64,000 nucleotides of DNA from Dehalococcoidia bacterium (GTDB lineage Bacteria > Chloroflexota > Dehalococcoidia > SpSt-223), in contig BPIC01000005.1 of NCBI GenBank assembly GCA_026003895.1, positions 288,941 to 352,940 on the forward strand, given 5' to 3'. Below the pieces are notes generated by a model, which saw only the letters and a program-made list of their open reading frames with translations, ran no database searches and had not been told where the DNA came from. The position numbers were made by a program, and so were the translations under genes. Shown one piece after another: positions 13,055 to 63,445 of the stretch. Each line of letters opens with the position of its first letter. The stretch's first letter is position 1.

Positions 13055-13273
13055 AGCTCGTCCGAACAAGGCGGTCCTCCCTCTGGCTGACTGGCGACGC
13101 CGTATGTGCCGCCTCATTTTACGCCCGCAATACTTCACGCGCGAGATATTTCATATCTGCCTTCTTCGGAGCCACGCTCAAGGTCTCGACCCCTGCCAAC
13201 CATGTCGGCAGTGCCGATGCCCGGGCTGCGTTACGATTGCGCATAGCGAAACGAACGTGTCGGGAGGGCTGCG

Positions 13274-23806: not shown

Positions 23807-25041
23807 TGGAGGCCGTGATGGCAAAGGCCACCGAGTCAGCGCCCCTGCGCCGCCGGCGGATTCTCCTCGCCGACGATCAAGACAGCATTCGCCACCTTGT
23901 CGCTGCAACCTTGGGCGGGGATCAGTTCGAGTTGGCGTACGCAACGAACGGCCGCGAGGCACTTGACTTCGCGATCCGCGAACACCCCGATCTCATCTTG
24001 CTTGACGTCAGCATGCCGATATTGGATGGGTTCGAAGTTTGCCGGGCGTTGAAGCAGCGCTCGTCCACGGGTGACATCAAAGTCGTGTTTCTCTCGGCTC
24101 TGGACAGCGACGCCGACCGCAAGCAAGGGATGGCGTCCGGTGCTGATGAGTACATCGTCAAACCCTTCAGCCCGTTGTTCCTGCTCCAAACGATCCAGCA
24201 TCTCCTCGACGACGACGTCTCCAAAGACACGCGGCCGGGCACCGTCGATCAGCGCCGATTTGAGCCCGTCGAGTTTGTCACGTCGACTCTTGCTCGCTAT
24301 CCCTCATCCTTCTTGGAATCGGACCGCGCGATGCCGGCTGGTGGCGCCGAGTTGCAACGCTCGGAAAGCCAGTTGTTGATCTATGCCGAGGAGCTGAACC
24401 AAGCCTATCGCGAGCTCCAAGCGACCTACTTTTCGACGTTGCAAGCACTGGCTGCGGCAATCGACGCTCGTGATCCGTATACCTTTGGACACTCGCAGCG
24501 CGTTTCTTATTACACCGTTGAAATCGCAAAGCTCATGGGCCTCGAGAGCGGAGCGATCGAGGTTCTGCGCCGTGCTGCTCTCTTGCATGACATTGGGAAA
24601 ATCGGCGTGCCCGATTCAACGCTGCTGAAACCTGGTCCGCTCAACGCTGCCGAGTGGGCAGTGATGAAACGCCATCCGGAGATCGGCGAGCAAATGATTG
24701 CTGGGCTGAAGTTTCTCGCGGAAGCCGCGCCGTTTATTCGGTGTCATCACGAGCGTTGGGACGGCCGCGGCTACCCTGACCGGCTGCGCCACGATCAGAT
24801 TCCGTTGGGAGCACGCATCCTTAGCGTCGCCGATGCGTTTGATGCCATGACCTCGACTCGGCCCTACCGGCCAGCCCTTAGCGTCGAAGAGGCACGCGCC
24901 GAGGCGGAGCGCGGCCGTCATCGGCAGTTCGATGCCCGAGTCGTCGACGCGTTTCAAGACGGTATTCGGGCGATCGAAGCGATTCTGCGCCGAGAAAGCG
25001 CGCGTTCGTCCGCCATGCGCTCTGGAAGAGCCGTCGAGTGA
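23803..25041 (+). CDS. response regulator with REC receiver domain and HD-GYP phosphohydrolase domain
   Basis: REC motifs (ILLADDQDS, LILLDVSMP, phospho-acceptor Asp context) followed by an HD-GYP domain (HSQRVSYYTVEIAKLMG, LLHDIGKIGVPD, HHERWDGRGYP). Start overlaps the VWA gene stop (GTGATG/TGA). Confidence 0.85.
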   Translation: MMEAVMAKATESAPLRRRRILLADDQDSIRHLVAATLGGDQFELAYATNGREALDFAIREHPDLILLDVSMPILDGFEVCRALKQRSSTGDIKVVFLSALDSDADRKQGMASGADEYIVKPFSPLFLLQTIQHLLDDDVSKDTRPGTVDQRRFEPVEFVTSTLARYPSSFLESDRAMPAGGAELQRSESQLLIYAEELNQAYRELQATYFSTLQALAAAIDARDPYTFGHSQRVSYYTVEIAKLMGLESGAIEVLRRAALLHDIGKIGVPDSTLLKPGPLNAAEWAVMKRHPEIGEQMIAGLKFLAEAAPFIRCHHERWDGRGYPDRLRHDQIPLGARILSVADAFDAMTSTRPYRPALSVEEARAEAERGRHRQFDARVVDAFQDGIRAIEAILRRESARSSAMRSGRAVE

Positions 25042-25129
25042 CCGTGGACCGGGGCTTGTTCGCGCCGCGGCGGCGGGGAATTGGGCGGACGGGGCAGCCG
25101 GGCCCGGCAGAGTTGCCAGTTCTGATTGG

Positions 25130-26497
25130 TTGATTGTGATCACCGGGCCCAACGAACTCCGAAGACTGCCGAGTGTCGATGCGCTGCTTCGCCACTCAGA
25201 GCTGACGGACCTGCAGCACGCGCTCGGCCACCGAGCCGTCGCCAATCTGGCGCGTCGAGTGCTTGACAGCGCCCGGGCTGCCATTGCGGCGGGATCGGGT
25301 GCCCCCAGCCTCGACTCATTGATCCACGAAGTTGCGGCGTTGGCGGCGCCGCTCGTGGCGGGTCCGCTCGTCCCGGTGATCAACGCAACGGGCGTGGTGA
25401 TCCACACCAACCTTGGCCGCGCTCCCCTTGCGCCAGACGCAGCGGCAGCGGCGCTCGATCTCGCTCAAGGCTACAGCAATCTTGAATATGACCTTGACGC
25501 CGGTAGCCGAGGCTCTCGCGATCGACATCTGGAGTGGCTGCTCACCCAAGTGACTGGCGCCGAGGCAGGGCTTGCCGTGAACAACAATGCGGCGGCGCTG
25601 TTGCTCGCGCTCTCGGCGTTGGCCGCAGGTCGAGAAGCCATTGTGTCGCGCGGACAAGCGGTCGAGATCGGCGGTGGCTTCCGCATTCCCGATGTGATGC
25701 GCCAGAGCGGGACGCGCCTCGTTGAGGTTGGAACTACGAACCGGACCTATCTCCGCGATTACGAAGAAGCGATCACGCCCGAAACGGCGGTGCTGCTCAA
25801 AGTGCATAGCAGCAATTTCGCCATCGTCGGCTTCACCCATGAAGTGGGAATTGAGGAACTCGCGCGGCTCGCTGAGGAACGAGGTCTTTGCGCTCTCGAC
25901 GACCTCGGCAGTGGCTGTCTCCTCGACACAAAGCAGTTTGGACTCGCCCACGAACCAATGGTACAAACCAGCGTTGCCGCCGGCGCCGGTATCGTCTGCT
26001 TTTCCGGCGACAAGCTCCTCGGTGGGCCGCAGGCGGGGGTGATTGTCGGCCGACGGCACTACATCGACCGGTTACGACGACACCCGCTCGCCCGCGCTGT
26101 CCGTATCGACAAGGTGACTCTCGCCGCGCTTGTCGCTACCCTGCGGCACTATCTGCGGGGCGACGCCGAACGCACGATTCCTGTCTGGCGCATGATCGCT
26201 ACGCCGCTTGCCAACTTGGGCGAACGCGCCGGTCGGCTGGCGGCGGCGCTTGCAGGCGAGGTGATCCCCGGTCGGTCGACGGTGGGCGGTGGCAGTCTTC
26301 CCGGTCAGACGATGGAGACGCGCCTCGTGGCCCTGCGGGACTCTGCGCCGGACGCCTTGGCGGCGCGGCTCCGGCGCGGGCGGCCGGCGGTCGTTGCCAG
26401 AGTGGACGAGGGACGGTTGGTATTGGACCCGCGGACCGTGCTTCCGGAGCAGGACGACGCGCTCATCGCCGCTGTGCGCGCGGCCCGTCAGTCGTAA
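25130..26497 (+). CDS. selA: L-seryl-tRNA(Sec) selenium transferase (selenocysteine synthase)
   Basis: Collinear with E. coli SelA: RLPSVDALL, INATGVVIHTNLGRA, LEYDLD, VNNNAAALLL, GGGFRIPDVMRQSGTRLVEVGTTNRT, SSNF, FSGDKLLGGPQAG. Start is approximate (TTG 25130 or GTG 25136). The longer ORF from 24932 overlaps the HD-GYP gene. Confidence 0.85.
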   Translation: MIVITGPNELRRLPSVDALLRHSELTDLQHALGHRAVANLARRVLDSARAAIAAGSGAPSLDSLIHEVAALAAPLVAGPLVPVINATGVVIHTNLGRAPLAPDAAAAALDLAQGYSNLEYDLDAGSRGSRDRHLEWLLTQVTGAEAGLAVNNNAAALLLALSALAAGREAIVSRGQAVEIGGGFRIPDVMRQSGTRLVEVGTTNRTYLRDYEEAITPETAVLLKVHSSNFAIVGFTHEVGIEELARLAEERGLCALDDLGSGCLLDTKQFGLAHEPMVQTSVAAGAGIVCFSGDKLLGGPQAGVIVGRRHYIDRLRRHPLARAVRIDKVTLAALVATLRHYLRGDAERTIPVWRMIATPLANLGERAGRLAAALAGEVIPGRSTVGGGSLPGQTMETRLVALRDSAPDALAARLRRGRPAVVARVDEGRLVLDPRTVLPEQDDALIAAVRAARQS

Positions 26498-31650: not shown

Positions 31651-33093
31651 CTAGGGCTGGGACCGGATGGCAACCGACCAAAGAAAGTCGGTCCGGACAA
31701 TCCGTGCGAAAATCGGGTCATTTGGCGGCACGTACCCCTCGTTTCGCACCGGTCCAAAGTTCGCGGCGGTTGGATCGTTGCGGTCGAAGCTCGGATACCC
31801 GGCTCGGACGTGACAGGCCATGCAGTTCGTCTTGATGCCGTTCATCAGGTCGCGGGGCATCGGCTCGCCCGTCGGTGTCACCGGAACGATGACGCCGAGG
31901 TCTGCCTCCAAGTGCGGATTGAAACAGATTGCTGGTCCGCCATCGGGCTCGCGCGGCAGCACCATGTCGTAGGCGGTGCACATCTCGAAGTTACGGAACG
32001 GTCCGCGGACCTTTGCCGTCCGGTTGTCGCCGAACGGACTGGAGTCCGGGTTCGGCGACCACCAAAACGTCTGCCACGTCCAATCATCGATCTCCTTCGT
32101 CGTGACGTGCATTGCGAGAAGAACGACGAAGTCCCCAATCTCCGGAACCTGACCAGCGTTGGTGACGAAACGCTCCTCTGGCTGGCCGACCGATGGCTCT
32201 CGCATGAACTTCCGCGCCTGTTGGACCTGATCGGGAGTGGTCAGTTGGAAGCTGTAGAAGTCGTTCAGGCGAACTACGGGCGAGGGGCGGACGCGTGGCG
32301 CTTCGGCCGTGCCGTTGCAGTTCACGGGTTGGAGCGAGCCAGCGGGGTAGCGGCCGGCAGGGTCGACGGCCACGCAGTCGAGCCACGTCAGGTAAATGGG
32401 TGGCGAGTCCGCCGGCGGCGGATAGGTCGGCCGCCAGATTGGGAGCGCGGTCAAGCCATTGTCGCTTTGCGGGCTGTCCGGCCGCTTGATCAGTCCGTAG
32501 ACCACCTTGATTGCGACCGCGTCGTTCGGAAACGGAGGGATGGTGCGGGCCTCGATCGGTTGGTTCGTGGCATTGAAGCGATTGTTCAAATCGACCAGCG
32601 TTGCACGGCGGAAGAGCCCGTTTTCCCAAAGGTGGCGAGCGCCAGCTTGGTTGTACGAGACGAACGACATGAAGTTGGCCGCGAGCATCGTATCTGGAGG
32701 GCGTCCGATGAGATGCTGGCTCGGCAGCTCGAAGAAACGCGCGAAGTCGCGCGGGCCGCGCAACGGATCCTTGCCGGCGGCGGCGTCTTCAAACAGCTCA
32801 TCCGCCGAGTACCACGTCTCGAAGATTGGCAAGCGTTGGCCGTTGACCACCGACAATGACGGCGCGGTCAGGCCCGCCCAAAGGTTCCACGCGTGTTCGC
32901 GAATCGCCTGCCGATCATTCGCGTAGATTGCAGCGAGGAGGCGATGACTCGGCGCAGGGAAATCGTACCCGTCTGGAATGTCTTGGTAGACGTAGAGCGG
33001 CTCAGGGATCAGTTGGCTCTCCACTGCCGGTACTGCCGGGGCGAGGGCGCCGATGCTAAGAAGAAGCATCACGGTCATCAGCGAACGTCGCAT
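31651..33093 (-). CDS. secreted hypothetical protein with a single C-terminal CXXCH haem-c binding motif
   Basis: Signal peptide (MRRSLMTVMLLLSIGALAPAVPA), Trp-rich and about 480 aa, with one CMACH motif near the C-terminus. Start chosen at the Met before the signal peptide. Confidence 0.55.
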   Translation of the reverse strand: MRRSLMTVMLLLSIGALAPAVPAVESQLIPEPLYVYQDIPDGYDFPAPSHRLLAAIYANDRQAIREHAWNLWAGLTAPSLSVVNGQRLPIFETWYSADELFEDAAAGKDPLRGPRDFARFFELPSQHLIGRPPDTMLAANFMSFVSYNQAGARHLWENGLFRRATLVDLNNRFNATNQPIEARTIPPFPNDAVAIKVVYGLIKRPDSPQSDNGLTALPIWRPTYPPPADSPPIYLTWLDCVAVDPAGRYPAGSLQPVNCNGTAEAPRVRPSPVVRLNDFYSFQLTTPDQVQQARKFMREPSVGQPEERFVTNAGQVPEIGDFVVLLAMHVTTKEIDDWTWQTFWWSPNPDSSPFGDNRTAKVRGPFRNFEMCTAYDMVLPREPDGGPAICFNPHLEADLGVIVPVTPTGEPMPRDLMNGIKTNCMACHVRAGYPSFDRNDPTAANFGPVRNEGYVPPNDPIFARIVRTDFLWSVAIRSQP

Positions 33094-33168
33094 CGGAGAC
33101 CCCTTTTCCCGCCGCCTTCGTGCGGTCACCTTGAATCGTGGGTGACGTGGCTCGCGAGCCAACGTCGA

Positions 33169-35310: not shown

Positions 35311-36045
35311 TTGGAGCCATTGATGATTCCTGAACGCGATCAGGCGATCATCCGGGACCGGTTTCAGGCCGAGCTGGTGAACCCGGTGACGATCGACCTG
35401 TTCATTCGTCCCGAGACCGGTTTGTTCATCCCCGGCCGTCAGCCTACCACCTCCCGTGAAACGCGCCAACTTCTCGAAGAGGTCGCAGCCCTCTCGGACA
35501 AGATCGCGCTCAATGTGGTAGACGTCACCTCCGATCCGGCGGCAGCGGCCGCGGCCAACGTCACGGAGGTGCCGACGATCATCATTCGGGGGCCAGAAGA
35601 CGGCCGAGTGCGAATGCTTGGTATTCCCTCTGGGTATGAGTTCGCGACCTTCATCGAAACGATCGTAAGCGTCTCGTCCGGCAACTTTGGCATCGATGAT
35701 GAGGTCGTCAAGATTCTGGACACGATCGCCGATCCGGTCGACGTCCAAGTATTCGTCACCCCCACCTGACCTCACTGCCCACGAACAGCGTCGTTGGCGC
35801 TGAAACTTGCTGCAAGCTCGTCAAGCATCCGTGCCAGTGTGATCGAGGCGAACGAGTTTCCCGACCTCTCGCGCCGATATCGCGTCTCGGCCGTGCCGCA
35901 GACCGTGTTCACCTCGGCGGCGTCACCTGAGCCGCGAGTCCTCGTCGGGGGCGGTCCGCCCGAGCGGTTCCTTGGAGAGTTGTTCACGGTTGCCCGTGTC
36001 CGTCTTGAGGATCACCTTGGGGACGAAGGCTCGGCCGAACGGTAA
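35311..36045 (+). CDS. thioredoxin-fold protein disulfide oxidoreductase (Pyrococcus PDO / glutaredoxin-like protein family) with an in-frame UGA (Sec) in the redox motif: candidate selenoprotein
   Basis: ORFs 35311-35769 and 35794-36045 are in the same frame, separated only by TGA at 35767-35769. The read-through product aligns block-for-block with the two-Trx-unit PDO of Pyrococcus: IIRDRFQAELVNPVTIDLFI / VFVTPT-U-PHCP / EANEFPDLSRRYRVSAVPQTVF. The TGA sits exactly at the first Cys of the CPxC motif. selA is in the same window. Confidence 0.7.
35780..35816 (+). promoter_or_regulatory. candidate bacterial SECIS-like stem-loop downstream of the in-frame UGA
   Basis: Hairpin CAGCG-UCGUUGG-CGCUG (35786-35802) places a G/U-containing apical loop about 22-28 nt 3' of the UGA. 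A second small hairpin CUUG-CUG-CAAG lies at 35806-35816. Not folded computationally. Confidence 0.3.
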
Positions 36046-36841: not shown

Positions 36842-38194
36842 CTATCCACGCTTGCGGAAGATGACCTCGTAGCTAAAGTGATTCGCCGAGTTTCGAAGCT
36901 CGCCGTTGCAGTATAAGGACTGGCGTTCCGCCTCGGTCTGGGCAAACAGCACGGTCTCCATATTGACGGCATAGTCCGATGTCGTGTCCTGGCCTTTTTC
37001 GTCCTTGATCACCCAGGCGGTCCAGTTGCCACGATAGAAGTACGCCTCGACCTTGCCTGGCCCTTTCTCACCGGTCCGGTAGGTAAAGCTGGTAGGACCG
37101 GAGTCCGTGCGAATGGTGACTCCGTTAATCGGCGCACCGCTTGCGTCAAGTGTGGTGAAGAACCCGATGCCATTGCCCGAATTCTCGCAGGCGGTGAGCT
37201 GATGCAGCTTGACGAGAATCCATTGGGCGCCCGGTGTCTCGCGCAGGTAGGCCGGTGTCATGCGGGTCACTGCGTCGAGCTGGCGTGGATAGGGCGACCC
37301 TGCGCCTGCAACAGCCGGAGTCGCCGTCGGCGGAAGGCTCGTTGGGGCCGCGGACGGTGGCGCTGCTGGTGAGGCGACGGGTGATGCAGCAGCGGCGGCC
37401 GGAGTGCTGGTCGGGGCTGGACTTCCGCTTGCCGGCGCAGCTGGAACGGGAGTTCCTCCTGTGGAGCCCGGCGGCTCGGGGATGATCGCGGCCTCCGGAA
37501 ACAGGCCAGCATCCTTGGCGACATCCCCACCATTGGCCACTTGGACGTCGCCACGACGTGCCCACGGCACGTCCTCCTTCCATTGCTGAATCACGATGCG
37601 CTGGGCTCGCAAGACATAGGCGTTGCCGACGTCTTCAATCTTTGACGTCGGCAGCCCGTTCATAATGATTGGGTCTCCCATGGCGGCGAAGTAGCGCGCC
37701 CGAATTGCTGGGTTGTCATCGAGCAAGGCGAGCCGGCCGCGGACGATCTCCTCCCATGACTTGCCCGTTTCCTCGAGCTTGATGGGGGCTGGTACCGTCT
37801 TGACCGTGCGGAGCCATGGGTCTTTGCCGGCGTCGGACATCTTGTCGAAGACGTTGACGAAGAGGACGGCATCCAGCTCCGGCCGCCACTGAAAGACGAC
37901 TTTCTGCATGGCTTGGCTGACAAACCCGTCCCACATGAAGCGACGCGAGATCGGGTAGCCGAGCACTTGTGGCCCGCCAAGTCGTCGGTATTCCGACCAA
38001 AACGGAATGTTGTCGTTATCGGTGATCGCAAAGCCGGTGCCGCCCTCTCCTGCCTTACCATTGGCCTGGGTGTAGAAATGCCCATTCGGAATGGCATAGT
38101 CCAAGGCGCTCTGCCCGGACGCCGGAAGGACGGTGATCGCACCCGCCAAGGGCGCCAGCGCCACCGCGACGAAGACCGGCCACCAACGGTTCAT
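36842..38194 (-). CDS. secreted hypothetical protein with two domains joined by a Pro/Ala/Ser/Thr-rich linker
   Basis: Signal peptide (MNRWWPVFVAVALAPLAGA). A low-complexity PAST linker lies at about nt 37290-37500. No recognised catalytic motif. Confidence 0.6.
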   Translation of the reverse strand: MNRWWPVFVAVALAPLAGAITVLPASGQSALDYAIPNGHFYTQANGKAGEGGTGFAITDNDNIPFWSEYRRLGGPQVLGYPISRRFMWDGFVSQAMQKVVFQWRPELDAVLFVNVFDKMSDAGKDPWLRTVKTVPAPIKLEETGKSWEEIVRGRLALLDDNPAIRARYFAAMGDPIIMNGLPTSKIEDVGNAYVLRAQRIVIQQWKEDVPWARRGDVQVANGGDVAKDAGLFPEAAIIPEPPGSTGGTPVPAAPASGSPAPTSTPAAAAASPVASPAAPPSAAPTSLPPTATPAVAGAGSPYPRQLDAVTRMTPAYLRETPGAQWILVKLHQLTACENSGNGIGFFTTLDASGAPINGVTIRTDSGPTSFTYRTGEKGPGKVEAYFYRGNWTAWVIKDEKGQDTTSDYAVNMETVLFAQTEAERQSLYCNGELRNSANHFSYEVIFRKRG

Positions 38195-42984: not shown

Positions 42985-44619
42985 TTATTGGATCCGGTAG
43001 GCGCTGTCCAGATTAATCTGGTTCTGCTGGTCCGTCGGGATGCCCTTGATTTTGGGCGAATGAACATGATAGGAGGCGCCGTTATACGTGAAGAGCAGCC
43101 ACAAGTCCTCTCGCTCAATCTGGGCAGCGCGGCGGTAGAGTTCCGCTCGACGGGCTGGGTCACGCTCGACAAGCGCCGCATCGAAGGTCTGATCCCAGAG
43201 CGGATTGCAATAGAAATACTGGTCCCGCGCGATGTTCGGCGGCCGGTTGCAACCCGTCGTCCCACGATAGGCGCTGAACCACCCATTACGGTCACCAGCG
43301 CCGGCTGAGACGATATCCCCTTTGGGTTGCCGGCCGCTCACCTTGTCACTGAAGACCGCGAGCTCAAGGCTATTGATCTCGATTTCGACACCGATCTCGC
43401 GCAGGTATCCCTGCACGGCGAGCGGTACTTCGGCTGGTTGCGCCGCCGGGGTAAAGTCCAGCCCACCTGTGAGCTTGAAACCATTTGGATACCCCGCTTC
43501 AGCGAGCAACTGGCGCGCTTTTGCGACGTCGTAGGGCCACGGCTGAAGTGCAGGATTCCAATATTGGCTGTCCGGGGTGCCACCTTGGCCAGTGGGTTTA
43601 TTGAACCCCTTGAAGAGTTGTTGGGTCATCGCCTCACGGTTGATGGCGTAGTTCAGTGCCTCTCGGACCCGCTTGTCGGCCAGTGGGCTGCCCTTCGCCT
43701 CCGCCACACCTTGTGGGATTTTCATTGACGCGTTCGTGTTGAGATAGGCGATCACAGTCATGCCGGCGGACCGGAGCTGGTCGGCCTGTTCGCCCGTAAA
43801 ATTGCGAAGCAGCGCAGCATCCAACTCACCCGTCCGGAGCCCGTTAATCACCTGGGCATTTTCGACGATGTTCCGGAAGATCAGCTCTCGGTTCTCAACT
43901 TTGCGGAACGCGTGCCGCTCAGACCGAACTCGGAAATGGGCGATTGATCCCGGCTGGAATTGCACGACCTCGTACGGTCCGGATCCCATTGGCTGCGATG
44001 CGTAGCCCGCATCACCTATCTCTTGATGCACCTTTTTTGACATCGCATAGACGAGAGGGCCGGCCGACGGAATGCTCAGGTCGACGGTTCGCGTGGTGAT
44101 CTGCAGTGTCGTTGGGTTGAGTGCTTGAACTCCGGAGACAGCCGTGATGAGCGAGCGAAGAATCCACCCTTGTTGTTTAAGCGCGAGATCAATGGTGTAG
44201 GCGAGATCTTCAGCCGTGACTGGGTCGCCGTTCCAGAAGCGAACGTCGTTGCGAAGGGTGAAGGTCCATACCGTCCCGTCGGGATTCAGCTCCCACGAAG
44301 TGGCGAGCCATGGCCGCACTTCGAAATTTGGTCCAAATGCCGTCAGTGAGTCATACAGCGGCGCATAAAACCACGGGTTCGAGGTAAAGCCAGCAGGAGA
44401 AAGCGTGTCGCTGAATCGGTTGATTCCGAAAGTGAGAACTTGGTTTTCGGCTCGCCGTTCGGTCGGGGTAGAAGCACCCGAGCTTGGCGCTGCGCTTGGT
44501 GCAGAAGGGGAACAGGCGCTCAGCGTGAGGAAGACGAAGCACAATGAAGCAAGGCGACGGATCATCCTCAGTGGCCTCCGTGACGACCGAACCGAACTTG
44601 ATAGCGGTACCCTAAACAA
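42985..44619 (-). CDS. ABC transporter substrate-binding protein, family 5 (SBP-A)
   Basis: Signal peptide plus a DppA/OppA-like fold. Paralogous to the SBP at 54204-55826. Confidence 0.85.
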   Translation of the reverse strand: MFRVPLSSSVRSSRRPLRMIRRLASLCFVFLTLSACSPSAPSAAPSSGASTPTERRAENQVLTFGINRFSDTLSPAGFTSNPWFYAPLYDSLTAFGPNFEVRPWLATSWELNPDGTVWTFTLRNDVRFWNGDPVTAEDLAYTIDLALKQQGWILRSLITAVSGVQALNPTTLQITTRTVDLSIPSAGPLVYAMSKKVHQEIGDAGYASQPMGSGPYEVVQFQPGSIAHFRVRSERHAFRKVENRELIFRNIVENAQVINGLRTGELDAALLRNFTGEQADQLRSAGMTVIAYLNTNASMKIPQGVAEAKGSPLADKRVREALNYAINREAMTQQLFKGFNKPTGQGGTPDSQYWNPALQPWPYDVAKARQLLAEAGYPNGFKLTGGLDFTPAAQPAEVPLAVQGYLREIGVEIEINSLELAVFSDKVSGRQPKGDIVSAGAGDRNGWFSAYRGTTGCNRPPNIARDQYFYCNPLWDQTFDAALVERDPARRAELYRRAAQIEREDLWLLFTYNGASYHVHSPKIKGIPTDQQNQINLDSAYRIQ

Positions 44620-44680
44620 ATGCTGCGGAGGAGTCCATATTTCCTCCGCAGCACGCTACACCTGACGTGGAGCGTCAGAA

Positions 44681-45620
44681 CTAGGTCGCGGTCTGAGGAG
44701 CCCGGCGTGGCTTCCGAGCCGTGACGAGCATGTTGGCGCCCGCCCGAACCGGCCGGGTGACGTCTTCGAGCCCGATGTCTTTGAGATATTGCTCGAAGTT
44801 TAGGTCGAGATAGCTGAGCATAAACGGCTCGCTGTTGCGCTTGACGGCGTTCTGCCGGCGAATCAAGTCGCCCTCGCTCTCCGCTGGTGGCCAGTCGAAC
44901 CACGTGATGACGTGGCCGGGCTTCGATAGGCGGACCATCTCGCCAATGAACGCCTTGGCGTGATAGTTCGGCATTTCGTGCAGACAGTAGCTTTCGTTGA
45001 CGGCGTCGAAGCTTTCGTCCGCGAAGTACCGCATGTCGCCGCCGTCCATGTGGTAGAAGAAAATGTTCTTGATGCCCAGCTGCTCGGCCTTGCGGCGCGC
45101 CCAGCGCAGCATCGAGGGGGAAAGGTCGACCCCGATCACCTCGGCATCTGGCCACAGTTCGGCCATGACGAACGTCGTCGTCCCGGTGCCGCATCCAACA
45201 TCGAGCGCCCGCTTGGGCTTCAGATCGCCGTAGGCTTTCTTCAGCCAAAACTTCACCGTTTCCGGCTCGGTAAAGTAGAACTTTGTCTTGGAACCCCAGT
45301 GGGTGATCCACGACGCGAACGCCGGATGCAGCGTGGCCGGCTGCGGGTAGGTATGGACCGGCTTCATGAAGTAATACGCAGGGTATTTTGCCGGCTCGGT
45401 CGCCCCCGGCGGCATGAGATCCGTCGCATCGAACGGGCCATCGAGCTTCTCGTAGGTTTCGAGCTCGATTCGCTTTTTCCATGCCGAAATCGTCGGGAAA
45501 TACTTCGACAACCAAAGACTGAAGTTCATCGGCGGGCCGGCGTACCCTGGGGCTCCCTCCGGCGGCCGGCCGATGACTTCAAGCGAACTGGGTCGGGTTG
45601 GCCTAGCTTTCGTCTGGGTC
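44681..45620 (-). CDS. class I SAM-dependent methyltransferase with ~100-aa N-terminal extension (MT-A)
   Basis: Motif I LDVGCGTGTTT, and FDAVNESYCLHEM. About 65-70% identical to MT-C (53142-54098). Start placed at a GTG near 45620. The ORF extends to 45856. Confidence 0.8.
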
Positions 45621-45632
45621 ACGGTGCTCCTC

Positions 45633-46709
45633 CTACTCCTTCCAACCCCACGTGATCCACGGTGTTGGGCTCCCACCGTTCTTCTTTCGCTCGCGGCTTG
45701 GCTCCTCCACCCGTGCAAATCCCGCCTCACGGCACATCGCGGCGAGATCGCGGAGCGCAGCCTGCCGCCAATACGGCTCACCGTTATGTTCAGTTTGCCA
45801 ATCCGACGTGAAGGCTCGGTACAATTCGTGCTCACGGTACGGCGGGGTGTCGGCAATCTGGAACAGCCCGCCCGGCTTCACGATCCGGTAGCCCTCGCGG
45901 ATGATCGCCATCGCTGCGTCGTCGGGGACCTCATGGAACAAAATGGTCGACGTGACGACATCGAAATAGTTATCCGGGAAGTCGGTCTGCTCGGCGGCCT
46001 GTTGGCTGAGGTGCAGCGCGATCCCTTGAGCCTCGGCTTGCTTATGGGCATATTTCAAAAGCGGGGCGGAGATGTCGATGCCATACACGTCGGCGTCCGG
46101 GAATCGTTCTTTGATCGGGTAGGTCGAATGGCCGACCCCGCAGCCGAGGTCGAGAATGCGCTCGTACCGGCCTTCGGGAATGGCAAGCGCGGCGCCGACC
46201 TTCAATTCGGATCGGGCGTTCCGCTCGCCGTGATAGACAACCTGACCGATTTCAAGGACGAACGGGATCAGTGGCTGGCGGTGTTGGCCGCCCGGCTGAA
46301 TGTGGTAGTCAATCTCGTAATAGGCCGGCGGTACGAGGTTCGGGTTCAAACGTAGCGAACCACGCGGATTCGGCACCGGCTCGTCGAGCCACGCGAGCAA
46401 CTCCTTTTCATGCGGGGTCACCGCCTCGAAAAGGCGGCTCCACATCAGCTCTTGAGTTTGCCGAGAGAGAAACTTCTCGGCTTTGTACTCGAACAAAGGC
46501 GAGACGATTTCAGCGACGTCAGCAAACGTCTGGGGCTCAGGTGCCCCGCTCGCCTTTCGCTCCTCAACGGTCTGCCGGTAATGCTTGGCGACCTTTCCGG
46601 CAAGCGCCTGCTGAGTAAACCCCTTGGCATTGCGGATGAAATCGAGGGTTGCTCGGTCGGGCTGGCCGAGCAAGACGCCGTCCTTTGCGATCGTCAACAT
46701 AGGCACCAC
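45633..46709 (-). CDS. class I SAM-dependent methyltransferase (MT-B)
   Basis: LDLGCGVGHSTY motif I, and FDVVTSTILFHEV. 358 aa. Confidence 0.8.
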   Translation of the reverse strand: MVPMLTIAKDGVLLGQPDRATLDFIRNAKGFTQQALAGKVAKHYRQTVEERKASGAPEPQTFADVAEIVSPLFEYKAEKFLSRQTQELMWSRLFEAVTPHEKELLAWLDEPVPNPRGSLRLNPNLVPPAYYEIDYHIQPGGQHRQPLIPFVLEIGQVVYHGERNARSELKVGAALAIPEGRYERILDLGCGVGHSTYPIKERFPDADVYGIDISAPLLKYAHKQAEAQGIALHLSQQAAEQTDFPDNYFDVVTSTILFHEVPDDAAMAIIREGYRIVKPGGLFQIADTPPYREHELYRAFTSDWQTEHNGEPYWRQAALRDLAAMCREAGFARVEEPSRERKKNGGSPTPWITWGWKE

Positions 46710-46786
46710 TTCTCCGATTGGCCCAGATCCATGGATCCGGTGTATTGTACGATACCTTCCCGCCAGTTCTGACAGCCTCGATCCAA

Positions 46787-48244
46787 TCAGACCACGACGC
46801 CTGGCCCACCTGCAGCGGCGAGCGCCGCCGCCGCCTTCGCGGCTTCGGTGCCCGAACGGATCGCATCAACCACCCCCCTTCCGTTGTAGGACGTGCCCGC
46901 TAGCACCAATCCCGGAATTGCGGCGGCGCGGCGCTCTGCCGCGGCAACCCGCTCGAGGTGCCCGAGGGTATAGCGGGGCAGCGCGGGTGACCAGCGGCGA
47001 CCGGCCACGAAGATCGGATCGGCCGAGATCCGGAGCACGTTCCGGATCTCCTCGAGGCCGAAGGCGATCAATTCGTCGTCACTCGAGTGTTCCACCACTT
47101 GGTCGTCGCTGAGAAAAGCGCGAAGCAGGGCATATCCCTCGGGAGCATGGCCCTCCCACCGAATGGAATCCCAGGTCATCGAGTTCACGGCGCCGCGCTC
47201 GCGACTGTGCTTGACGTACCCGGTCCCGGCGAGGATTTTCGGAGCATCTTCGGCACGGAAGGCAAAGGAAAAGGTGGCCATCGATCGGAACCGAACCCCA
47301 GCGAGCGCCTCCGCCAGCGGTGCATCCAGTTGACGGAGGCGCTCGGCTGCTTCGAAGGCCGGCGCGGTCACCACGACAACATCCGCAGAGAGGCGCTCGA
47401 ACCCGGCCGGCCCGCGTGTGACGACATCGAAGCCGCGGGGCGTTCGCGCAATCTCCTCGACAGCGACACCCGTCCGTAGCGTGACATGTGGAGCGTCGCT
47501 CAGCCGCGCGACCAAGCGTGTGATGATGACGTCCATCCCTTCGCGTGGTGCGACGAGGGTTGCATCGGCTTTGCCGAGTTCCTCCAACCGAGCCTTCTGC
47601 TTACGGGCGCCCACACTGACACTGCCGAACTGACGTTCGAAGGCCACGAGACCCGGGGCTGCTGCTGGCGCCGAGAGCGTGTCTCCTTCGCCCCCAGCAA
47701 TCCCCCCGAGCAGCGGCTCAAGGACGTTCCACCACGCCTCGTCGCCGAAGCGACGACGCAGAAATGCTCCGAGGGACTCTTCAGAACCGTCCTTGCGCGG
47801 CGGAAGAAACGGCTCAAGCATGGCCCGCAGGGCGCCAGACGGTGACAAGATGCCTTCCGCCACCAATGCGCCTGGCCGCAAGGGCAAGATGTCGGTGACC
47901 CCTTGGGTAATCGGACGGAGCTTCCCTTTGAAGAGGATGGAGCTGCCGCCGTGGACACGCTTTGGAGACTGCAGTTGGTCTGCGAGCCCGAGGTCGGCAC
48001 ACAGCTCGTAGCCTTCGGGCGCAGCGGCGACGAACCCCTCAGGCCCGGCCTCGATAATGAACCCCTCTCGCCGGATGGTGAAGAACTTGCCGCCGAGACG
48101 GTCGTCGCGCTCGATGACGGTGATCGTCGCTGCAACGCCGGTTTCGGAAAGCGAATCGATCAGCCGGAAGGCGGCCGTCAGGCCCGTGATACCTCCGCCG
48201 ACGATCACAATCTGGCGCGGGTCGGAGGCGAGAGGATCGGTCAC
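46787..48244 (-). CDS. FAD-dependent oxidoreductase of the protoporphyrinogen/coproporphyrinogen oxidase (HemY/CgoX) family
   Basis: N-terminal dinucleotide-binding motif IVIVGGGITGLTAAFRL and overall HemY-like layout. GTG start at 48244 preceded by AAGGAGA. Confidence 0.65.
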   Translation of the reverse strand: MTDPLASDPRQIVIVGGGITGLTAAFRLIDSLSETGVAATITVIERDDRLGGKFFTIRREGFIIEAGPEGFVAAAPEGYELCADLGLADQLQSPKRVHGGSSILFKGKLRPITQGVTDILPLRPGALVAEGILSPSGALRAMLEPFLPPRKDGSEESLGAFLRRRFGDEAWWNVLEPLLGGIAGGEGDTLSAPAAAPGLVAFERQFGSVSVGARKQKARLEELGKADATLVAPREGMDVIITRLVARLSDAPHVTLRTGVAVEEIARTPRGFDVVTRGPAGFERLSADVVVVTAPAFEAAERLRQLDAPLAEALAGVRFRSMATFSFAFRAEDAPKILAGTGYVKHSRERGAVNSMTWDSIRWEGHAPEGYALLRAFLSDDQVVEHSSDDELIAFGLEEIRNVLRISADPIFVAGRRWSPALPRYTLGHLERVAAAERRAAAIPGLVLAGTSYNGRGVVDAIRSGTEAAKAAAALAAAGGPGVVV

Positions 48245-48407
48245 GCGTGGTCTCCTTCGAGGGTGTCGCCGATTTCTACGGATTGATCGCGCCAATTCGC
48301 CGCGACTTCAAGGGCAGAATGGCCATGCTATTCGGACCATTTCCTTGCGCTTTGAGAGCACCGCTTGCGCCGGGAGCGGATCGAGGCATCCCGACGTGGC
48401 ACGGTGC

Positions 48408-49328
48408 CTAGAGCGGCAAGCGGGAGTCGAGCGCCTCTTGCAGTCCCTCGCCGAGCAAGTTGAACGACACCACCGTCAGGAAGATGAGCAGCCCGGGCAG
48501 CAAGGCAACATGCGGGGCGACAAAGAAAAACTGCCGTCCGGTGGCTAACATCGCTCCCCAGTCCGGCTGTGGCGCTTGAGTGCCGAGCCCGAGAAACGAA
48601 AGGCTGGCGGTGGCGATCAGCTTTGCGCCGACATCAAGTGTGCCCGCAACAATGATCAGTGGCAGGCAATTTGGCAGGAGGTGGCGGAACAGAATTCGGG
48701 GTGTGCTACTGCCGAGCGCTTCGGCGGCTTGGATGAATTCGCGCTCCCGCAGCGACAGCACGTGTCCCCGCACGAGCCGAGCGTAGAGCGGTATCCCGAC
48801 GATCGCGACGGCGACCATCGCATTGGTCAAGCCGGGACCAGCGGCGGCCACGATGGCAATGGCCAACAAGACCCCGGGAAATGCCATGACAATGTCGATC
48901 AGGTGGGTAGCCGCCGAGTCGACCCAACCTCGAAAGTACCCAGCGGTCAGTCCAAGCGCCACTCCCGGCACGAGCGACAACAGCGCCGCGCCGATGCCGG
49001 CGAGCAGCGACGTGCGACCGCCCCAGACCAGCCGGCTCAGCAAATCGCGGCCGAGCTCATCACTTCCAAGCAGGTAGCCGGGCCAGCCGACGGGACGCAG
49101 CCGATTGACAGTTTGCAACTCCATTGGGGTGGGGTTCGCCAGAGGCAGCACGGGCGCCGCGAGGGCGAGCGCTACGATGGTCAGCAGAACCACCGTGCCG
49201 GCGACTGCCAGCGGGTGCCGGCGGAATCGCCGCCAGGCTTGGGCACGGGGCGAGACCGAAGCGGACGACGCTTGGGTGCCCCGCGTGCTGAGCGCGAGCG
49301 GTGCGACAGTCGGCTTAGCGTCCGCCAT
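48408..49328 (-). CDS. ABC transporter permease (DppC/OppC-like)
   Basis: 6 TM helices and an EAA-like loop. Overlaps the upstream permease gene. Confidence 0.85.
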   Translation of the reverse strand: MADAKPTVAPLALSTRGTQASSASVSPRAQAWRRFRRHPLAVAGTVVLLTIVALALAAPVLPLANPTPMELQTVNRLRPVGWPGYLLGSDELGRDLLSRLVWGGRTSLLAGIGAALLSLVPGVALGLTAGYFRGWVDSAATHLIDIVMAFPGVLLAIAIVAAAGPGLTNAMVAVAIVGIPLYARLVRGHVLSLREREFIQAAEALGSSTPRILFRHLLPNCLPLIIVAGTLDVGAKLIATASLSFLGLGTQAPQPDWGAMLATGRQFFFVAPHVALLPGLLIFLTVVSFNLLGEGLQEALDSRLPL

Positions 49329-50271
49329 AGCGTATCCGCGGATCGATTCGCGTATAAAGCACGTCGACGAACAGATTGATGATCACAAAGACAAAGGCAG
49401 TAAAGACGATACCCCCTTGGACGAGAGGATAGTCGCGACTGTTGATGCCATTGACGATCAAGAGCCCAAGGCCGGGCCAGCCGAACACATATTCAACGAG
49501 GACGGCCCCGCCGAGCAGGTAACCTGCCTGAGCACCAACGATCGTGACGACGGGAATCAACGCATTCTTCAGGGCGTGGCCCCACAACACCGCGTGTCCC
49601 GCCAGCCCTTTAGCGCGTGCCGCACGGATATAGTCCTGCTGCAAGACCTCAACCATACTCATCCTCGTGACCCGTGCGATAAACGCGAGAGACGGTAGGG
49701 CGAGGGTGACCGCCGGCAGGATGAGGAAGGGCACGATGTCGAATGGCCCTTGCCGAACTGGTGGTGACATGCCTTGCGGCGGCAACCAGCGCAATTGAAC
49801 CGCAAAGATGACGATCAGGACCATCCCGGTCCAAAACACCGGAAGCCCGACACCACACAACGCGAGGAACATGACCAACCGATCGACGAGCGATCGGGCC
49901 CGCGTGGCCGCGAGAATTCCGGCGACAATCCCCCCAGCCGCGGCGAGGGCGAGGCTCGCGGCGCCTAGGATGGCCGTGTTGCCAAAGCGGTCGAGCACCT
50001 CGGCGAGCACCGGACGCCGCAGAAAGATCGACTCGCCAAAGTCCCCGCGGACGAGCCGGCCAAGCCAGCGGACGTATTGGACGACGAGCGGATCGTCCAG
50101 CCCGTATTCTGCCCGGATCGCTCGGATCACGTCGTCTGATGCGTTCGGTCCGGCGAGCAGAGCTGCTGGATCCCCGGGGACGAACCGCATCACCGCGAAG
50201 ACGATGGTGGCAACACCGACGGCGATGGGGACGGTTGCGAGGAGCCGCCGGAGCAGAAACGCGCTGAGCAT
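49315..50271 (-). CDS. ABC transporter permease (DppB/OppB-like)
   Basis: 318 aa with an OppB/DppB-like topology and conserved loop. Confidence 0.85.
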   Translation of the reverse strand: MLSAFLLRRLLATVPIAVGVATIVFAVMRFVPGDPAALLAGPNASDDVIRAIRAEYGLDDPLVVQYVRWLGRLVRGDFGESIFLRRPVLAEVLDRFGNTAILGAASLALAAAGGIVAGILAATRARSLVDRLVMFLALCGVGLPVFWTGMVLIVIFAVQLRWLPPQGMSPPVRQGPFDIVPFLILPAVTLALPSLAFIARVTRMSMVEVLQQDYIRAARAKGLAGHAVLWGHALKNALIPVVTIVGAQAGYLLGGAVLVEYVFGWPGLGLLIVNGINSRDYPLVQGGIVFTAFVFVIINLFVDVLYTRIDPRIRYGGR

Positions 50272-50280
50272 GTTACGCCG

Positions 50281-51897
50281 CTACGCGAGGTAGAGGAGGT
50301 TCCAATCGACCTCGACGTTGTCTCGCATCACGAAGCCATTGACCTCCGCAGCGTGATACCACATCGCGATTTCATGATCGACGAAGACCCACGGCATGTC
50401 GTTCATGAGAATGCGTTGTGCTTCGTGGCACGCATTTCGCCGCACGGTCGGCGTACTCTCCCGCCGAACGGTGCTGGCAAGCTCATCGAACTTCTCATTC
50501 CGGTAAAACGCTGCGTTTAACCCCTGCGGCGGGAAGTTGATGGAGTTGAACAAGCTGTTCAAGTAATTGTCTGGATCGAAGGTAACGGACGAGATCCCGC
50601 GTGCACTCATCTGGAAGTCGCCAGCGTTCCAGCGCTGCACATACGCCGCAAACTCTTGGACGTCGAGCGTGACTCGTATACCGACGGCAGCAAGCTTGCC
50701 TTGAATGAATTCGGCCATCGGCACAGGCTGTTGCATCCCGGTTCCACCTGACGGAATGAGGAAGCGCACGTCGAGCGTGTCAACTCCGGCTTCTCGCAGG
50801 AGCTGGCGAGCGCGGTCGGGCTGGTTATCGTTTGCGGGAAGGTCCCGCGCCACCCACTCCCCAAATGCCGGGGAGAACGGACCTCGCGCGGGCTGGCCGG
50901 TTCCCCGCAGCACGTCCCGGGTGAGCGCCGTCCGGTCAAGCGCGAGGCTGATCGCTTGCCGAACGCGCTGGTCAGTAAAGGGTTGGAAGCGCTGGCTCAG
51001 TTGGATCGCCCAATGCTGCCGACTGACGCGCTGTTGGACACGAAGCCGGCTGTCACCACGAACGATGTCGACCGAGTCTGGGGGCAAATCGACCGTGAAA
51101 TTGATCTGGCCCGTTTGCAACGCAAGCAGGCGCGATTGGGCATCGGGGATGGGGCGAACGATCAACTGATCGGCGTATGCCGTCTGCCCCCAATATTCAG
51201 GGTTCCGTTCAAGCGTCAGTTGCTGTCCTTTTTGCCACGAACTGAATCGGAACGGACCGGTGCCGACGGGCCGGTCGGCAACGCCCTTTCCCAACTCGCG
51301 CAGCGCTTTCGGGCTGATCATGTAACTGGGGTTGGTCGTGAGATAGTTCATCAACGGCGCATAGCGCTGCTTGAGATTGAGGCGAATGGTGTACTCGTCG
51401 ACCACATCCACGCTGGCGATCGGCGTGAGGAACAACCGGTAGAACAGCCAGTTGCCATCCTTGTTGTTTGGATGGTCGGGGTTGATCTGACGGTCGAGGT
51501 TGAACTTGGCAGCCTCGGCGTTGAACGGCGTGCCGTCGTGGAACTTGACGCCACGCCGGAGCGACAACGTCCAGCTCATGCCGTCACTTGCCTGCTCCCA
51601 GCGTTCGGCAAGCGCTGGCAAGATCTCGGTCTTATCCGGCGATTCGCGAACCAGTGGGTCATAGATCGCATATGCGACGCGACGGGTGTAGTTGTCCGAG
51701 ACGGCGTGAGCGTCGAGGGTCAGTGGATCGATCGGGCTCCCGTAGACGATCGCACCACCTCTGCGGGGACCCGCCGTCGTCTGCCCAGTGGAACCGGCTG
51801 GCTGAGCCGCTGGCGCACCACCACATGCCGCGAGAAGGCCGGAACTCGCCGCTGCCGCTGAAGCCGCGAGGAAGGTACGACGCGAAATCGTTTCCAT
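50281..51897 (-). CDS. ABC transporter substrate-binding protein, family 5
   Basis: Signal/Tat-like N-terminus (RRTFLAASAAAASSGLLAACGG) and a DppA-like fold. Confidence 0.85.
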   Translation of the reverse strand: METISRRTFLAASAAAASSGLLAACGGAPAAQPAGSTGQTTAGPRRGGAIVYGSPIDPLTLDAHAVSDNYTRRVAYAIYDPLVRESPDKTEILPALAERWEQASDGMSWTLSLRRGVKFHDGTPFNAEAAKFNLDRQINPDHPNNKDGNWLFYRLFLTPIASVDVVDEYTIRLNLKQRYAPLMNYLTTNPSYMISPKALRELGKGVADRPVGTGPFRFSSWQKGQQLTLERNPEYWGQTAYADQLIVRPIPDAQSRLLALQTGQINFTVDLPPDSVDIVRGDSRLRVQQRVSRQHWAIQLSQRFQPFTDQRVRQAISLALDRTALTRDVLRGTGQPARGPFSPAFGEWVARDLPANDNQPDRARQLLREAGVDTLDVRFLIPSGGTGMQQPVPMAEFIQGKLAAVGIRVTLDVQEFAAYVQRWNAGDFQMSARGISSVTFDPDNYLNSLFNSINFPPQGLNAAFYRNEKFDELASTVRRESTPTVRRNACHEAQRILMNDMPWVFVDHEIAMWYHAAEVNGFVMRDNVEVDWNLLYLA

Positions 51898-51995
51898 CCC
51901 TCACTCCCGATCAACGTTGAGTGTGGCAGATGGTGCACCACTCCCGGTGGTTTGTCAAATATGCGGAATTTCCGAGCCGACGATCTGCCGAGGGG

Positions 51996-53073
51996 TTAGG
52001 GTGCCCTCAAGGGGGCTCGGATGGGAGCGAGCCCCGTCGACTGCCCGCGGTGCACGGCGTCAATCACCTCTTGGCAGCGGAGCGCGTCGAGGAGATTGGG
52101 GTGCTCTGGGGTGCCCGTCTCGATGGCGTTGATTAACTTGTGTACAAGCAGCCCGAAGCGTGGGACGGCCGAACGGGCCGCCATTTCCGGGAACACCGGG
52201 TCCGGGATGTCAATTGGCTGGAGGTCCCGGTCGTGTGGCCCGGCGACACGTATCTTGAGGTCATTATCCACAACGATCGAACCAGCGCTCCCGTAAATTT
52301 CGAGTTGGAACCCGGTCCCGGCGCGGTTCCCAAACCCGAGCTGTATGGTGACGATTGCACCGTTCTCAAGCGTGCCGAGCACCGCAAACCCGTCGTCGGC
52401 CGTTGCCTTGGTGAGTTGACCCTGCTCGTCAAGAACATCTGGGTTCCACGTGCGCAATTGGCCGGTGGCCGTCGCCCACTCACCGAACCAATATCGGACG
52501 AGGTCGATGTAGTGACTCCCCATCGCGCCGAGATACCCTCCACCGAGCTCGGCGTCGTTCAGCCACGTTCGGGGACGCGGCGGCATTCCCGCCGGCCAGC
52601 CCGCCCACTGCTCGATCGAGATGTGCCGCACCTCGCCGACAAATCCCTCGTCAACAAGGCGCTTGATGTGCATCGTGTGGGGAAAGAAGCGCATCGTGAA
52701 GGCCGAGATGTGGGCGACCCGGTTTCGTTCCGCAGCGTCAAGCATTTCCTGGGCTTGGCTCGCGTTCACCCGCCGCCGGCTTTTCGCAGAGGACGTGTTT
52801 GCCGGCCTCGGCGGCCGCCACGGTCATCGGATGGTGCAAATAGACTGGCGCCCCAATGTACACAATGTCGAGCTCGGGCAGCGCGATCATCTCACGGTAG
52901 TCGTCGAACGCAAGCGGTGCACCAAACTGCTCGGCTGTAGACTTCGCGCGCTCAAGCCTGGCGCTGCACACGGCGTACAGCTCGACATCAGGATAGCTGG
53001 CGAACGTGGGGAGCGGACTCTTCGCCGCCCAAGCGGTGCCGATCGCCCCAACCTTGTAGCGCTTGCTGGCCAT
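51996..53073 (-). pseudogene. Gfo/Idh/MocA family oxidoreductase interrupted by a frameshift
   Basis: The N-terminal Rossmann part (52738-53073: KVGAIGTAWAAK...HVLCEKP) and the C-terminal part (51996-52769: NASQAQEMLDAAERNRVAH...) overlap in different frames around 52740-52770. Either a real frameshift or a sequencing indel. Confidence 0.6.
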
Positions 53074-53141
53074 CGCTCCTCCTCATGAAACAACGCCGGG
53101 AGAAGACTCCTCCCGGCGTCGAAGATAGGTCCTTGGGGTCG

Positions 53142-54098
53142 TCAGGACGATGCCGCGGCAGCCGGAACCGATGCGTCCTTGCGAGCGGGCTTTCGAGCGA
53201 CAACGAGCATATTCGCCCCGGCGCGCACGGGTCGGTGCACGTCTTCGAGACCCAGCTCAACGAGGTACTGTTCCAGTCTCAGGTCGAGATACTGCAGCAT
53301 GAATGGCTCAGAGCCCCGTTTCGCGATCTCCTCGCGGCGGGCGAGATCTCCCGGGGTCTCGGCTGGTGGCCAGTCAAACCACGTAATCAGGTGACCCGGC
53401 TTTGAGAGACGAATCATCTCCTTGACAACGGCCCGGCTGTGATACGTCGGCATCTCATGCAGACAGTAGCTCTCGTTGACGACGTCAAAGGACTCATCGG
53501 GATAGAACGAGCAGTCTCCTGCATCCATGTGATAGAAGCGGATGTTCTTGACGCCGCGCTCCTCGGCCAACTTCCGGGCGTAGCGAAGGTTCGAGGGAGA
53601 GAGGTCAATTCCGATAACTTCGCACTCGGGCCAGAGTTCGGCCATGACGAAAGTGGTCGCGCCGATGCCACAGGCGAGGTCGATCGCTCGTTCCGGCTTG
53701 ATGTCGCCGTAGACCTTCTGCAGCCAGAATTTGATCGTCTCTGGCTTCGTGAAGTAGAACGTCGTCCGCTTCTGGAACTCACCGTGATACGGCCCAAACG
53801 CCGGATCCAAGCCACCCGGTTTCGGGAACGTGTGAACCGGCTTCATGAAAAAGTACGCCGGGTATTTCGCCGGTTGGGTGGCGCCGGGCGGCATCAGGTC
53901 CGTTGCGTCGAACGGCCCATCCATTTGTTCGAGCATACGGAACTTGATCTTCTGCTTCACCTTGTGGAGGGCAGGCAGATACTTCGAGATCCACAGCTCG
54001 AGGGTCATCGGCGGACCGGCGTACTGCGGGGTCCCGGGTGGCGCCGACCCTATGACCGCGGTCTTTTCTTGCAGAGTTGGCTTGGCCGTTGTCGTCAT
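53142..54098 (-). CDS. class I SAM-dependent methyltransferase with N-terminal extension (MT-C, paralogue of MT-A)
   Basis: LACGIGATTFVMAELWPECEVIGIDLSP, and FDVVNESYCLHEM. Start placed at MTTTAKPT. Confidence 0.8.
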   Translation of the reverse strand: MTTTAKPTLQEKTAVIGSAPPGTPQYAGPPMTLELWISKYLPALHKVKQKIKFRMLEQMDGPFDATDLMPPGATQPAKYPAYFFMKPVHTFPKPGGLDPAFGPYHGEFQKRTTFYFTKPETIKFWLQKVYGDIKPERAIDLACGIGATTFVMAELWPECEVIGIDLSPSNLRYARKLAEERGVKNIRFYHMDAGDCSFYPDESFDVVNESYCLHEMPTYHSRAVVKEMIRLSKPGHLITWFDWPPAETPGDLARREEIAKRGSEPFMLQYLDLRLEQYLVELGLEDVHRPVRAGANMLVVARKPARKDASVPAAAASS

Positions 54099-54203
54099 GG
54101 TGCTGACCTCCCACGAGTTCGTGAACATTGTACGACTTGTTGAAATGAAAGGGAAGGCCCACGCCAGAATCGGCGCGGGCCATCAGACCGGGACGACCGT
54201 CCG

Positions 54204-62067: not shown

Positions 62068-62180
62068 ATCCTGCCTCCGCGTCGGCCCTTCCCGCCCGGA
62101 CCGCCGCCTGCCGCGCCGAAACGCGGGTGTCCGCGTCGTTATCGATTATAGGCTGTATGGCGGGTTGCAAACCGCGCCGA

Positions 62181-63308: not shown

Positions 63309-63445
63309 GGACCCGTTCCTTCCTTTCCGTTCCCACCCGCGCCCGGGCAATTGCTCCGTTCAGGGCGGCTCGGATTGTGACACAGCCTCTAGGACCGTGC
63401 AAGCAAGAAAGCTGGCAAGCCTCCGCTCGTCTGCCTGCTTTTGGT

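Follow-up and report, generated by a model that had tools for sequence, protein, structure and literature searches.

The window, by which we mean the whole 64,000-nt stretch of DNA that was analyzed, comes from “Dehalococcoidia bacterium” KatS3mg060 and contains two called open reading frames, 35311 to 35769 and 35794 to 36045, that lie in one frame [(35794 − 35311)/3 = 161]. A single TGA codon separates them, and it is the sole stop in that frame from 35311 up to the TAA at 36043 to 36045. The translation runs ...VDVQVFVTPT up to the TGA and PHCPRTASLALKLAA... after it. Orthologues are collinear with the product across its full length. This is a single gene, not two, as an earlier preliminary description of this DNA had proposed (Table 1). 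That description had also put the read-through product at ~244 residues; the idea of one read-through protein stands, but its size would be 240 residues, with a start at ATG 35323 and not at TTG 35311. From the sequence comparison, the ATG is most likely the true start, which makes the TGA codon 149, because the orthologues all begin with M-I/L-x-[ED]-R-D and a GGAG lies 7 nt upstream.

Its immediate neighbors are, on one side, a divergent ABC-2 exporter and, on the other, a convergent acylphosphatase. This synteny is kept in relatives and includes a Zincin_1 gene on the acylphosphatase side. A scan for promoter and terminator consensus sequences between 34900 and 36250 found none, and a scan of the window for other TGA-split genes with a redox-motif context found none either.

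Table 1. Coordinates of the predicted selenoprotein gene, its elements, and selA in the window
Feature	Position	Strand	Basis or remark
Predicted Sec-containing PDO-type CDS	35323..36045	+	240 codons + TAA stop; Sec149 = UGA
UGA codon, predicted to be read as selenocysteine (U149)	35767..35769	+	Aligns with invariant first Cys of CPxC
Shine-Dalgarno-like GGAG	35312..35315	+	7 nt 5' of ATG 35323, read from sequence
SECIS-like hairpin CAGCGUC-GUU-GGCGCUG, inside CDS	35786..35802	+	7-bp stem; folding + comparison
U-P-H-C redox motif (predicted)	35767..35778	+	Alignment; C-unit [C/U]-P-x-C after FVTPT
Degenerate N-unit redox motif P41-T-T-S44	35443..35454	+	Most homologues have C-x-x-C there
selA, L-seryl-tRNA(Sec) selenium transferase	24932..26497	+	Pfam SelA, E = 1.5e-139

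GenBank holds the exact N-terminal fragment of this protein as a 148-aa hypothetical protein, and standard annotation has thus yielded the hypothetical fragment that had been foreseen (P0002 and P0004; locus tags KatS3mg060_3022 and RMM58_04625). Six further database proteins end at the same residue, five of them at 72 to 80% identity and one at 57%. The contigs from which these proteins derive, in which we read through the stop, comprise 14 loci from different samples and assemblers and represent 7 distinct sequences. The TGA at codon 149 is kept in six further distinct orthologues, in which it is followed by ~90 conserved in-frame residues. A search among relatives for a Cys-containing orthologue, which the preliminary description had recommended, was successful: one orthologue (L012) has TGT (Cys) at the position of the TGA. 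Some JGI calls name the 35323 to 35769 fragment an AhpF subunit, and the predicted selenoprotein is missed in all records.

For profile searches, Cys was put in place of the TGA. The protein then matches the NCBIfam equivalog TIGR02187 (“PDO_seleno_TRX”) at 205.7 bits against a cutoff of 185, with residues 4 to 220 spanning profile positions 2 to 206 of 209, and the Pfam matches are DUF7088 for the N-terminal half and Thioredoxin_3 for the C-terminal half. Using phmmer, query residues 2 to 220 align with the Pyrococcus furiosus protein disulfide oxidoreductase (PDO) 1A8L (E = 2.7e-29), and this alignment contains all three of the sequence blocks that had been quoted in favor of collinearity with the two-unit PDO of Pyrococcus. 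Over the full length, the PDB matches are 1A8L, 1J08, 2YWM, and 2AYT (E = 1e-25 to 1e-29); the solved PDOs that were aligned come from P. furiosus, P. horikoshii, Aquifex aeolicus, and Aeropyrum pernix. The AhpF models score far below their cutoffs (TIGR03140, 54 bits versus 503; TIGR03143, 89 bits versus 688), and the 240-aa protein stands alone, without the fused TrxR-like FAD/NAD(P)H module of AhpF.

The structure that we modeled with AF2 is that of a natural Cys orthologue (P0001), which is 69% identical to the window protein. The model (pLDDT, 89.7; pTM, 0.86) has TM scores of 0.82 to 0.88 against PDO structures, and AhpF N-terminal domains rank next. In the model, the counterpart of U149 follows strand 138-144 and precedes helix 151-164, which is the classic active-site position of the thioredoxin fold. 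Overall, the profile matches and the model indicate that two tandem thioredoxin-fold units are present in one chain.

The motif of the C-terminal unit reads VFVTPT-U-PHC-P. The Cys column is invariant among homologues, and the alignment puts the TGA on it, in agreement with the earlier placement of the TGA at the first Cys of the CPxC motif. The N-terminal unit differs from that of most homologues: RQPTTSRE is aligned with RECELCKE or RECETCED. This loss of the N-unit CxxC, which had also been noticed beforehand, extends to 8 of the 8 members of the clade to which the window protein belongs. Because PTTS replaces C-x-x-C there, U-P-H-C would be the sole redox center of the protein.

A short hairpin with SECIS-compatible spacing, as anticipated in the preliminary description, does exist inside the coding sequence downstream of the TGA. 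Its apical loop, GUU (35793 to 35795), begins 23 nt after the UGA, and its folding energy is −8.6 kcal/mol. The published criteria for bSECIS elements are a loop of 3 to 9 nt, a stem of 4 to 16 bp, a G in the first two loop positions, a distance of 16 to 37 nt from the UGA, and an MFE of −7.5 kcal/mol or lower (PMC13188914). With a loop of 3 nt and a stem of 7 bp, the hairpin fits all of these. RNA folding of 35767 to 35830 gives no stability above that of shuffled sequence (z = 0.09; for 35750 to 35850, z = −0.25), nor is there any excess over synonymous resampling of the window sequence by itself (fraction, 0.65). Since thermodynamics by itself cannot support a SECIS element, comparative tests were used.

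Among six orthologues, 131 degenerate codons are invariant in amino acid, and 12% of these have the same codon in all six. The sole run of six codon-identical columns in the gene, T155 to L160 (35785 to 35802), coincides with the hairpin, and a run of 6 was reached by 3 of 10,000 permutations. The hairpin is nucleotide-identical in 6 orthologues. In the divergent orthologue L010, T-A-S-L-A is encoded by other codons (GCC and AGT), which produce a GGCCA-GUU-UGGCC hairpin 1 nt upstream. These comparisons indicate that, downstream of the TGA, purifying selection acts on the protein as well as on the RNA hairpin. No Rfam family matched the whole window at gathering thresholds; a permissive local Rfam scan returned miRNA and lncRNA matches, which were judged to be due to chance.

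The locus that encodes the Cys orthologue P0001 (L012, positions 767 to 1489), which is the sole Cys form of the window clade, has a near-intact hairpin, CCGCGUC-GUU-GGCGCUG, in which one A-to-C change breaks one pair. This suggests that L012 represents a recent Sec-to-Cys switch that left a fossil SECIS element behind.

Beyond this clade, metagenome contigs were scanned for the pattern F-V-T-P-T-TGA-P-x-C-P, and Sec forms were found on at least 120 of them; in each, the TGA is followed in frame by a conserved thioredoxin unit. Cys forms in reference genomes number at least 598; the pattern used for that scan ended in Cys, and hence it retrieves Cys forms only and is silent on the species distribution of Sec forms. 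Among the matches listed, a hairpin with a contiguous stem of at least 5 bp and a loop start between +19 and +30 is present in 118 of 122 distinct Sec forms, compared with 34 of 75 Cys homologues, and the difference between Sec and Cys hairpins in the same coding region is significant (Mann-Whitney P = 6.5e-20). Furthermore, the loops of the listed Sec forms contain G in 99% of cases and GU in 82%, and the mean MFE of these forms lies 6.4 standard deviations below that obtained by synonymous-codon resampling. Selection for a SECIS-type hairpin was seen in TGA forms only.

The hairpins of the Sec forms (L095 to L214; nt +13 to +48 after the TGA) occupy several registers and have differing stem sequences. 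Of the listed sequences, 68 have a loop start at +21 (CGUGCU, CGUGGU, or CGUGC) and 25 have one at +26 or +27 (GGU, GGC, or GUU). This pattern suggests that the SECIS element has been repeatedly remodeled within one coding segment of the Sec-PDO genes. Clustering by similarity does not separate Sec from Cys forms; the two are interleaved.

Covariation was considered at individual base pairs as well. In the register-47 class, pair 17-30 is CG in 21 sequences, GC in 21, and AU in 5, a result that 0 of 500 shuffles reach, but the covariation is partly circular because the class was chosen for having a hairpin; register 54 has almost no variation. Over all listed Sec forms, pair 17-30 is paired in 50%, compared with 46% of the Cys forms (P = 0.66). 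Given the several registers, a test of one pair in a fixed register over all sequences is uninformative, and since the fixed pair does no better in Sec forms than in Cys forms, we relied upon the register-free hairpin statistic.

Regarding the machinery for selenocysteine, the SelA gene said to lie about 9 kb upstream was found: selA ends 8.8 kb upstream of the Sec-PDO gene on the same contig. It is full length, with 556.8 bits against a cutoff of 267.9 for the NCBIfam equivalog TIGR00474 (profile positions 1 to 454 of 455), and its translation probably begins near codon 70 of the open reading frame. We know of no role for selA outside Sec synthesis. Genes for selB, selD, and tRNA-Sec were not found within the 64-kb window, and an ARAGORN search of the window and 31 related loci did not find tRNA-Sec. 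Independently, Dehalococcoidia have been reported to be rich in selenoproteins, the genes numbering 46 in one genome and 49 in another (BSepDB; PMC13326102).

The lack of selB, selC, and selD in the window would be in keeping with a UGA that is read through as an amino acid other than Sec, whether by a near-cognate tRNA (Trp, Cys, or Arg) or under a reassigned code. However, 19 of the 36 Pfam-supported genes in the window end with TGA as an ordinary stop, and therefore the code is not reassigned. Nor does a non-Sec read-through sit well with the position of the codon, which is that of the nucleophilic Cys of CxxC and thus the canonical site of Sec/Cys exchange, or with an intact selA and a hairpin that is under selection in TGA forms only. 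In addition, the family is already curated as one of UxxC selenoproteins. We consider decoding as another amino acid to be quite improbable.

If the TGA were instead a real stop, the locus would encode a truncated 148-aa fragment, with or without a separately initiated C-terminal fragment, or it would be a pseudogene. The public records of 148-aa hypothetical proteins (P0002 and P0004) are what such a stop would give, the gene callers add a small downstream open reading frame, and no other stop is as common in the window as TGA. However, termination here would cut the protein inside the catalytic motif of the thioredoxin fold. Furthermore, PHCPRTAS, the stretch after the TGA that precedes the first candidate start, has 100% protein conservation among the orthologues, and codons P150 to R154 keep their amino acids while varying synonymously (3, 2, 1, 4, and 3 codon types). 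This segment would be noncoding under a two-gene model, and its conservation with the synonymous variation typical of translated sequence therefore indicates that it is translated. The starts of the supposed second gene are called inconsistently across contigs, from 24 to ~73 nt past the TGA, and none of the relatives has a separate downstream gene. The TGA is retained and the frame is intact in seven orthologues and in at least 120 environmental homologues, which would not be the case for a pseudogene. Taken together, these observations make a real stop very improbable. The probability that the TGA arose from TGC or TGT of an ordinary Cys-PDO through faulty sequencing or assembly is negligible, for while a single-base change would restore Cys and L012 is a natural TGT example, such an error is excluded because the TGA recurs in independent assemblies (the 14 loci as well as at least 120 metagenome contigs), and the downstream hairpin is constrained at the RNA level.

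The locus is thus very probably one PDO-type gene in which UGA149 is decoded as Sec by means of the in-frame hairpin, giving a disulfide-reducing protein with a single redox center. The product would be a cytoplasmic, stand-alone oxidoreductase of the PDO type, similar to the N-terminal domain of AhpF and composed of two thioredoxin-fold units. We infer Se incorporation at U149, SelB binding, and the redox partners as follows. The hairpin would recruit SelB and Sec-tRNA(Sec), so that Sec is inserted in place of termination. The redox center, Sec149-Pro-His-Cys152, would lie at the N terminus of the first helix of the C-terminal unit, and the N-terminal unit, lacking CxxC, may serve as a structural or docking module only. 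By analogy with characterized PDOs and AhpF, the Sec149 selenolate may attack the substrate disulfide, with Cys152 resolving the intermediate to leave a selenenylsulfide that a flavoprotein of the thioredoxin reductase type would re-reduce. Electrons could then pass from NAD(P)H through the Sec-PDO to peroxiredoxins or other disulfide targets.

Such a path resembles that in which electrons go from NADPH to TrxR, PDO, and then the Bcp peroxiredoxins (PMC7465337). Mutagenesis of the Sulfolobus PDO showed that the C-terminal site acts as a thiol-transferase and that isomerase activity requires both sites (PMC7465337). From these site assignments we predict a single-center selenium-based reductase, like a free-standing N-terminal domain of AhpF; having the C-site only, the protein is expected to be a reductase or thiol-transferase and not an isomerase. 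Neither an adjoining redox partner gene nor ahpC or ahpF-like genes were found in the neighborhood of the Sec-PDO gene, and the proposed partners and substrates thus rest on analogy.

The PDO_seleno_TRX selenoprotein family has been known since 2004. To our knowledge, it has been predicted with high confidence but never biochemically characterized. In 2006, it was recorded in Carboxydothermus and in Symbiobacterium (PMC1794560), and TIGR02187 is curated as a selenoprotein family (PMC13188914, PMC9312934, and PMC1794560). The earlier suggestion that the protein would belong to a new or rare selenoprotein family therefore fails, because the family is curated already and at least 120 environmental Sec forms exist. 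The window gene is an unrecorded, misannotated member of a known selenoprotein family that is common in the environment.

With the known PDO_seleno_TRX selenoproteins, the window protein has in common the UxxC motif, the predicted Sec in the first position of the C-unit center, one Sec per protein, a family HMM score above the cutoff, and an in-frame bacterial SECIS-like element directly downstream. It differs from them in its host, the Dehalococcoidia metagenome-assembled genome KatS3mg060, and the window clade differs in the loss of the N-unit CxxC, in a 5-residue insertion that precedes the last strand, and in an acidic C-terminal tail. The hairpin in the window is also in the less common register, with its loop at +27 and not +21.

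Similarities to the archaeal and bacterial PDOs (P. furiosus 1A8L, P. horikoshii 1J08, A. aeolicus 2AYT/2YWM, and that of S. solfataricus) include the two-thioredoxin-unit fold, ~220 collinear residues, the FVTPTCP(Y/H)CP C-site, and a stand-alone protein of ~26 kDa. These PDOs have Cys at that site plus a second CxxC in the N-unit, which is required for isomerase activity (PMC7465337), whereas the window protein has U-P-H-C as its C-site and no N-unit site, and thus it lacks the classical two-site feature of the archaeal type. The N-terminal domain of AhpF (1HYU, 1ZYN, and 5H29) likewise consists of two fused thioredoxin folds with a single center in the second unit, and the predicted role as a shuttle between a TrxR-like flavoprotein and a peroxiredoxin is the same. 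However, the window protein is not fused to an FAD/NADH TrxR-like module, and its similarity to AhpF is much weaker.

The N-unit CxxC is absent from 55 of 110 Sec forms (L095 to L214) but from only 2 of 74 Cys forms (L015 to L094) among the matches listed. By sequence, this difference has a Fisher P of 2e-13, and by 60%-identity clade, the loss is found in 10 of 28 Sec clades and 1 of 13 Cys clades; for both counts, the two sets were sampled differently. A link between Sec use and single-center forms in the PDO family is, from these sequence comparisons, suggestive only. It is conceivable, but in our estimation rather doubtful, that the window clade represents a distinct single-center Sec-PDO subfamily, marked by its N-unit CxxC loss, 5-residue insertion, acidic tail, and own SECIS register, and that, more generally, Sec use in the PDO family preferentially accompanies the loss of the N-unit site. 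If so, there would have been a repeated shift from a two-site isomerase/oxidoreductase to a dedicated selenium-based reductase like the N-terminal domain of AhpF.

These results do not open a new question, as the family, the UxxC motif, and the use of Sec in Dehalococcoidia have all been described before. Their main value is corrective: they provide one well-supported family member and a comparative SECIS data set. With a 148-aa record standing where a 240-aa selenoprotein is predicted, inventories of redox proteins and selenium use in thermophilic Dehalococcoidia would be undercounts.

Several other features of the window were noted. Long open reading frames with no Pfam or NCBIfam match are found at 31651 to 33162 and 36842 to 38194 on the minus strand and at 13274 to 14551 and 62043 to 63380 on the plus strand. 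The second of these, which encodes 450 aa including a Pro/Ala/Ser-rich linker, is syntenic beside the Zincin_1 and acylphosphatase genes in all relatives. A GFO/IDH/MocA oxidoreductase open reading frame (51996 to 52769, minus strand) has the C-terminal domains only, and stops occur in frame where its N-terminal NAD-binding domain would be expected (52770 to 53141); this may reflect a frameshift in the gene, its truncation, or faulty assembly.

Three paralogous SAM-dependent methyltransferases (44681 to 45856, 45633 to 46709, and 53142 to 54128) are encoded in the region from 42985 to 55826 on the minus strand, where they are interleaved with three of the four SBP_bac_5 genes of the window, Opp-type permeases, and a flavin amine oxidase. 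The remaining SBP_bac_5 solute-binding protein gene is at 11510 to 13138. Near the beginning of the window, a gene for a large alpha-2-macroglobulin-like protein (Big_5, MG2, and A2M; 1170 to 5903, minus strand) adjoins one for a bifunctional transglycosylase/transpeptidase (5780 to 8176, minus strand), a pair that resembles the known bacterial pairing of A2M with PBP1C.
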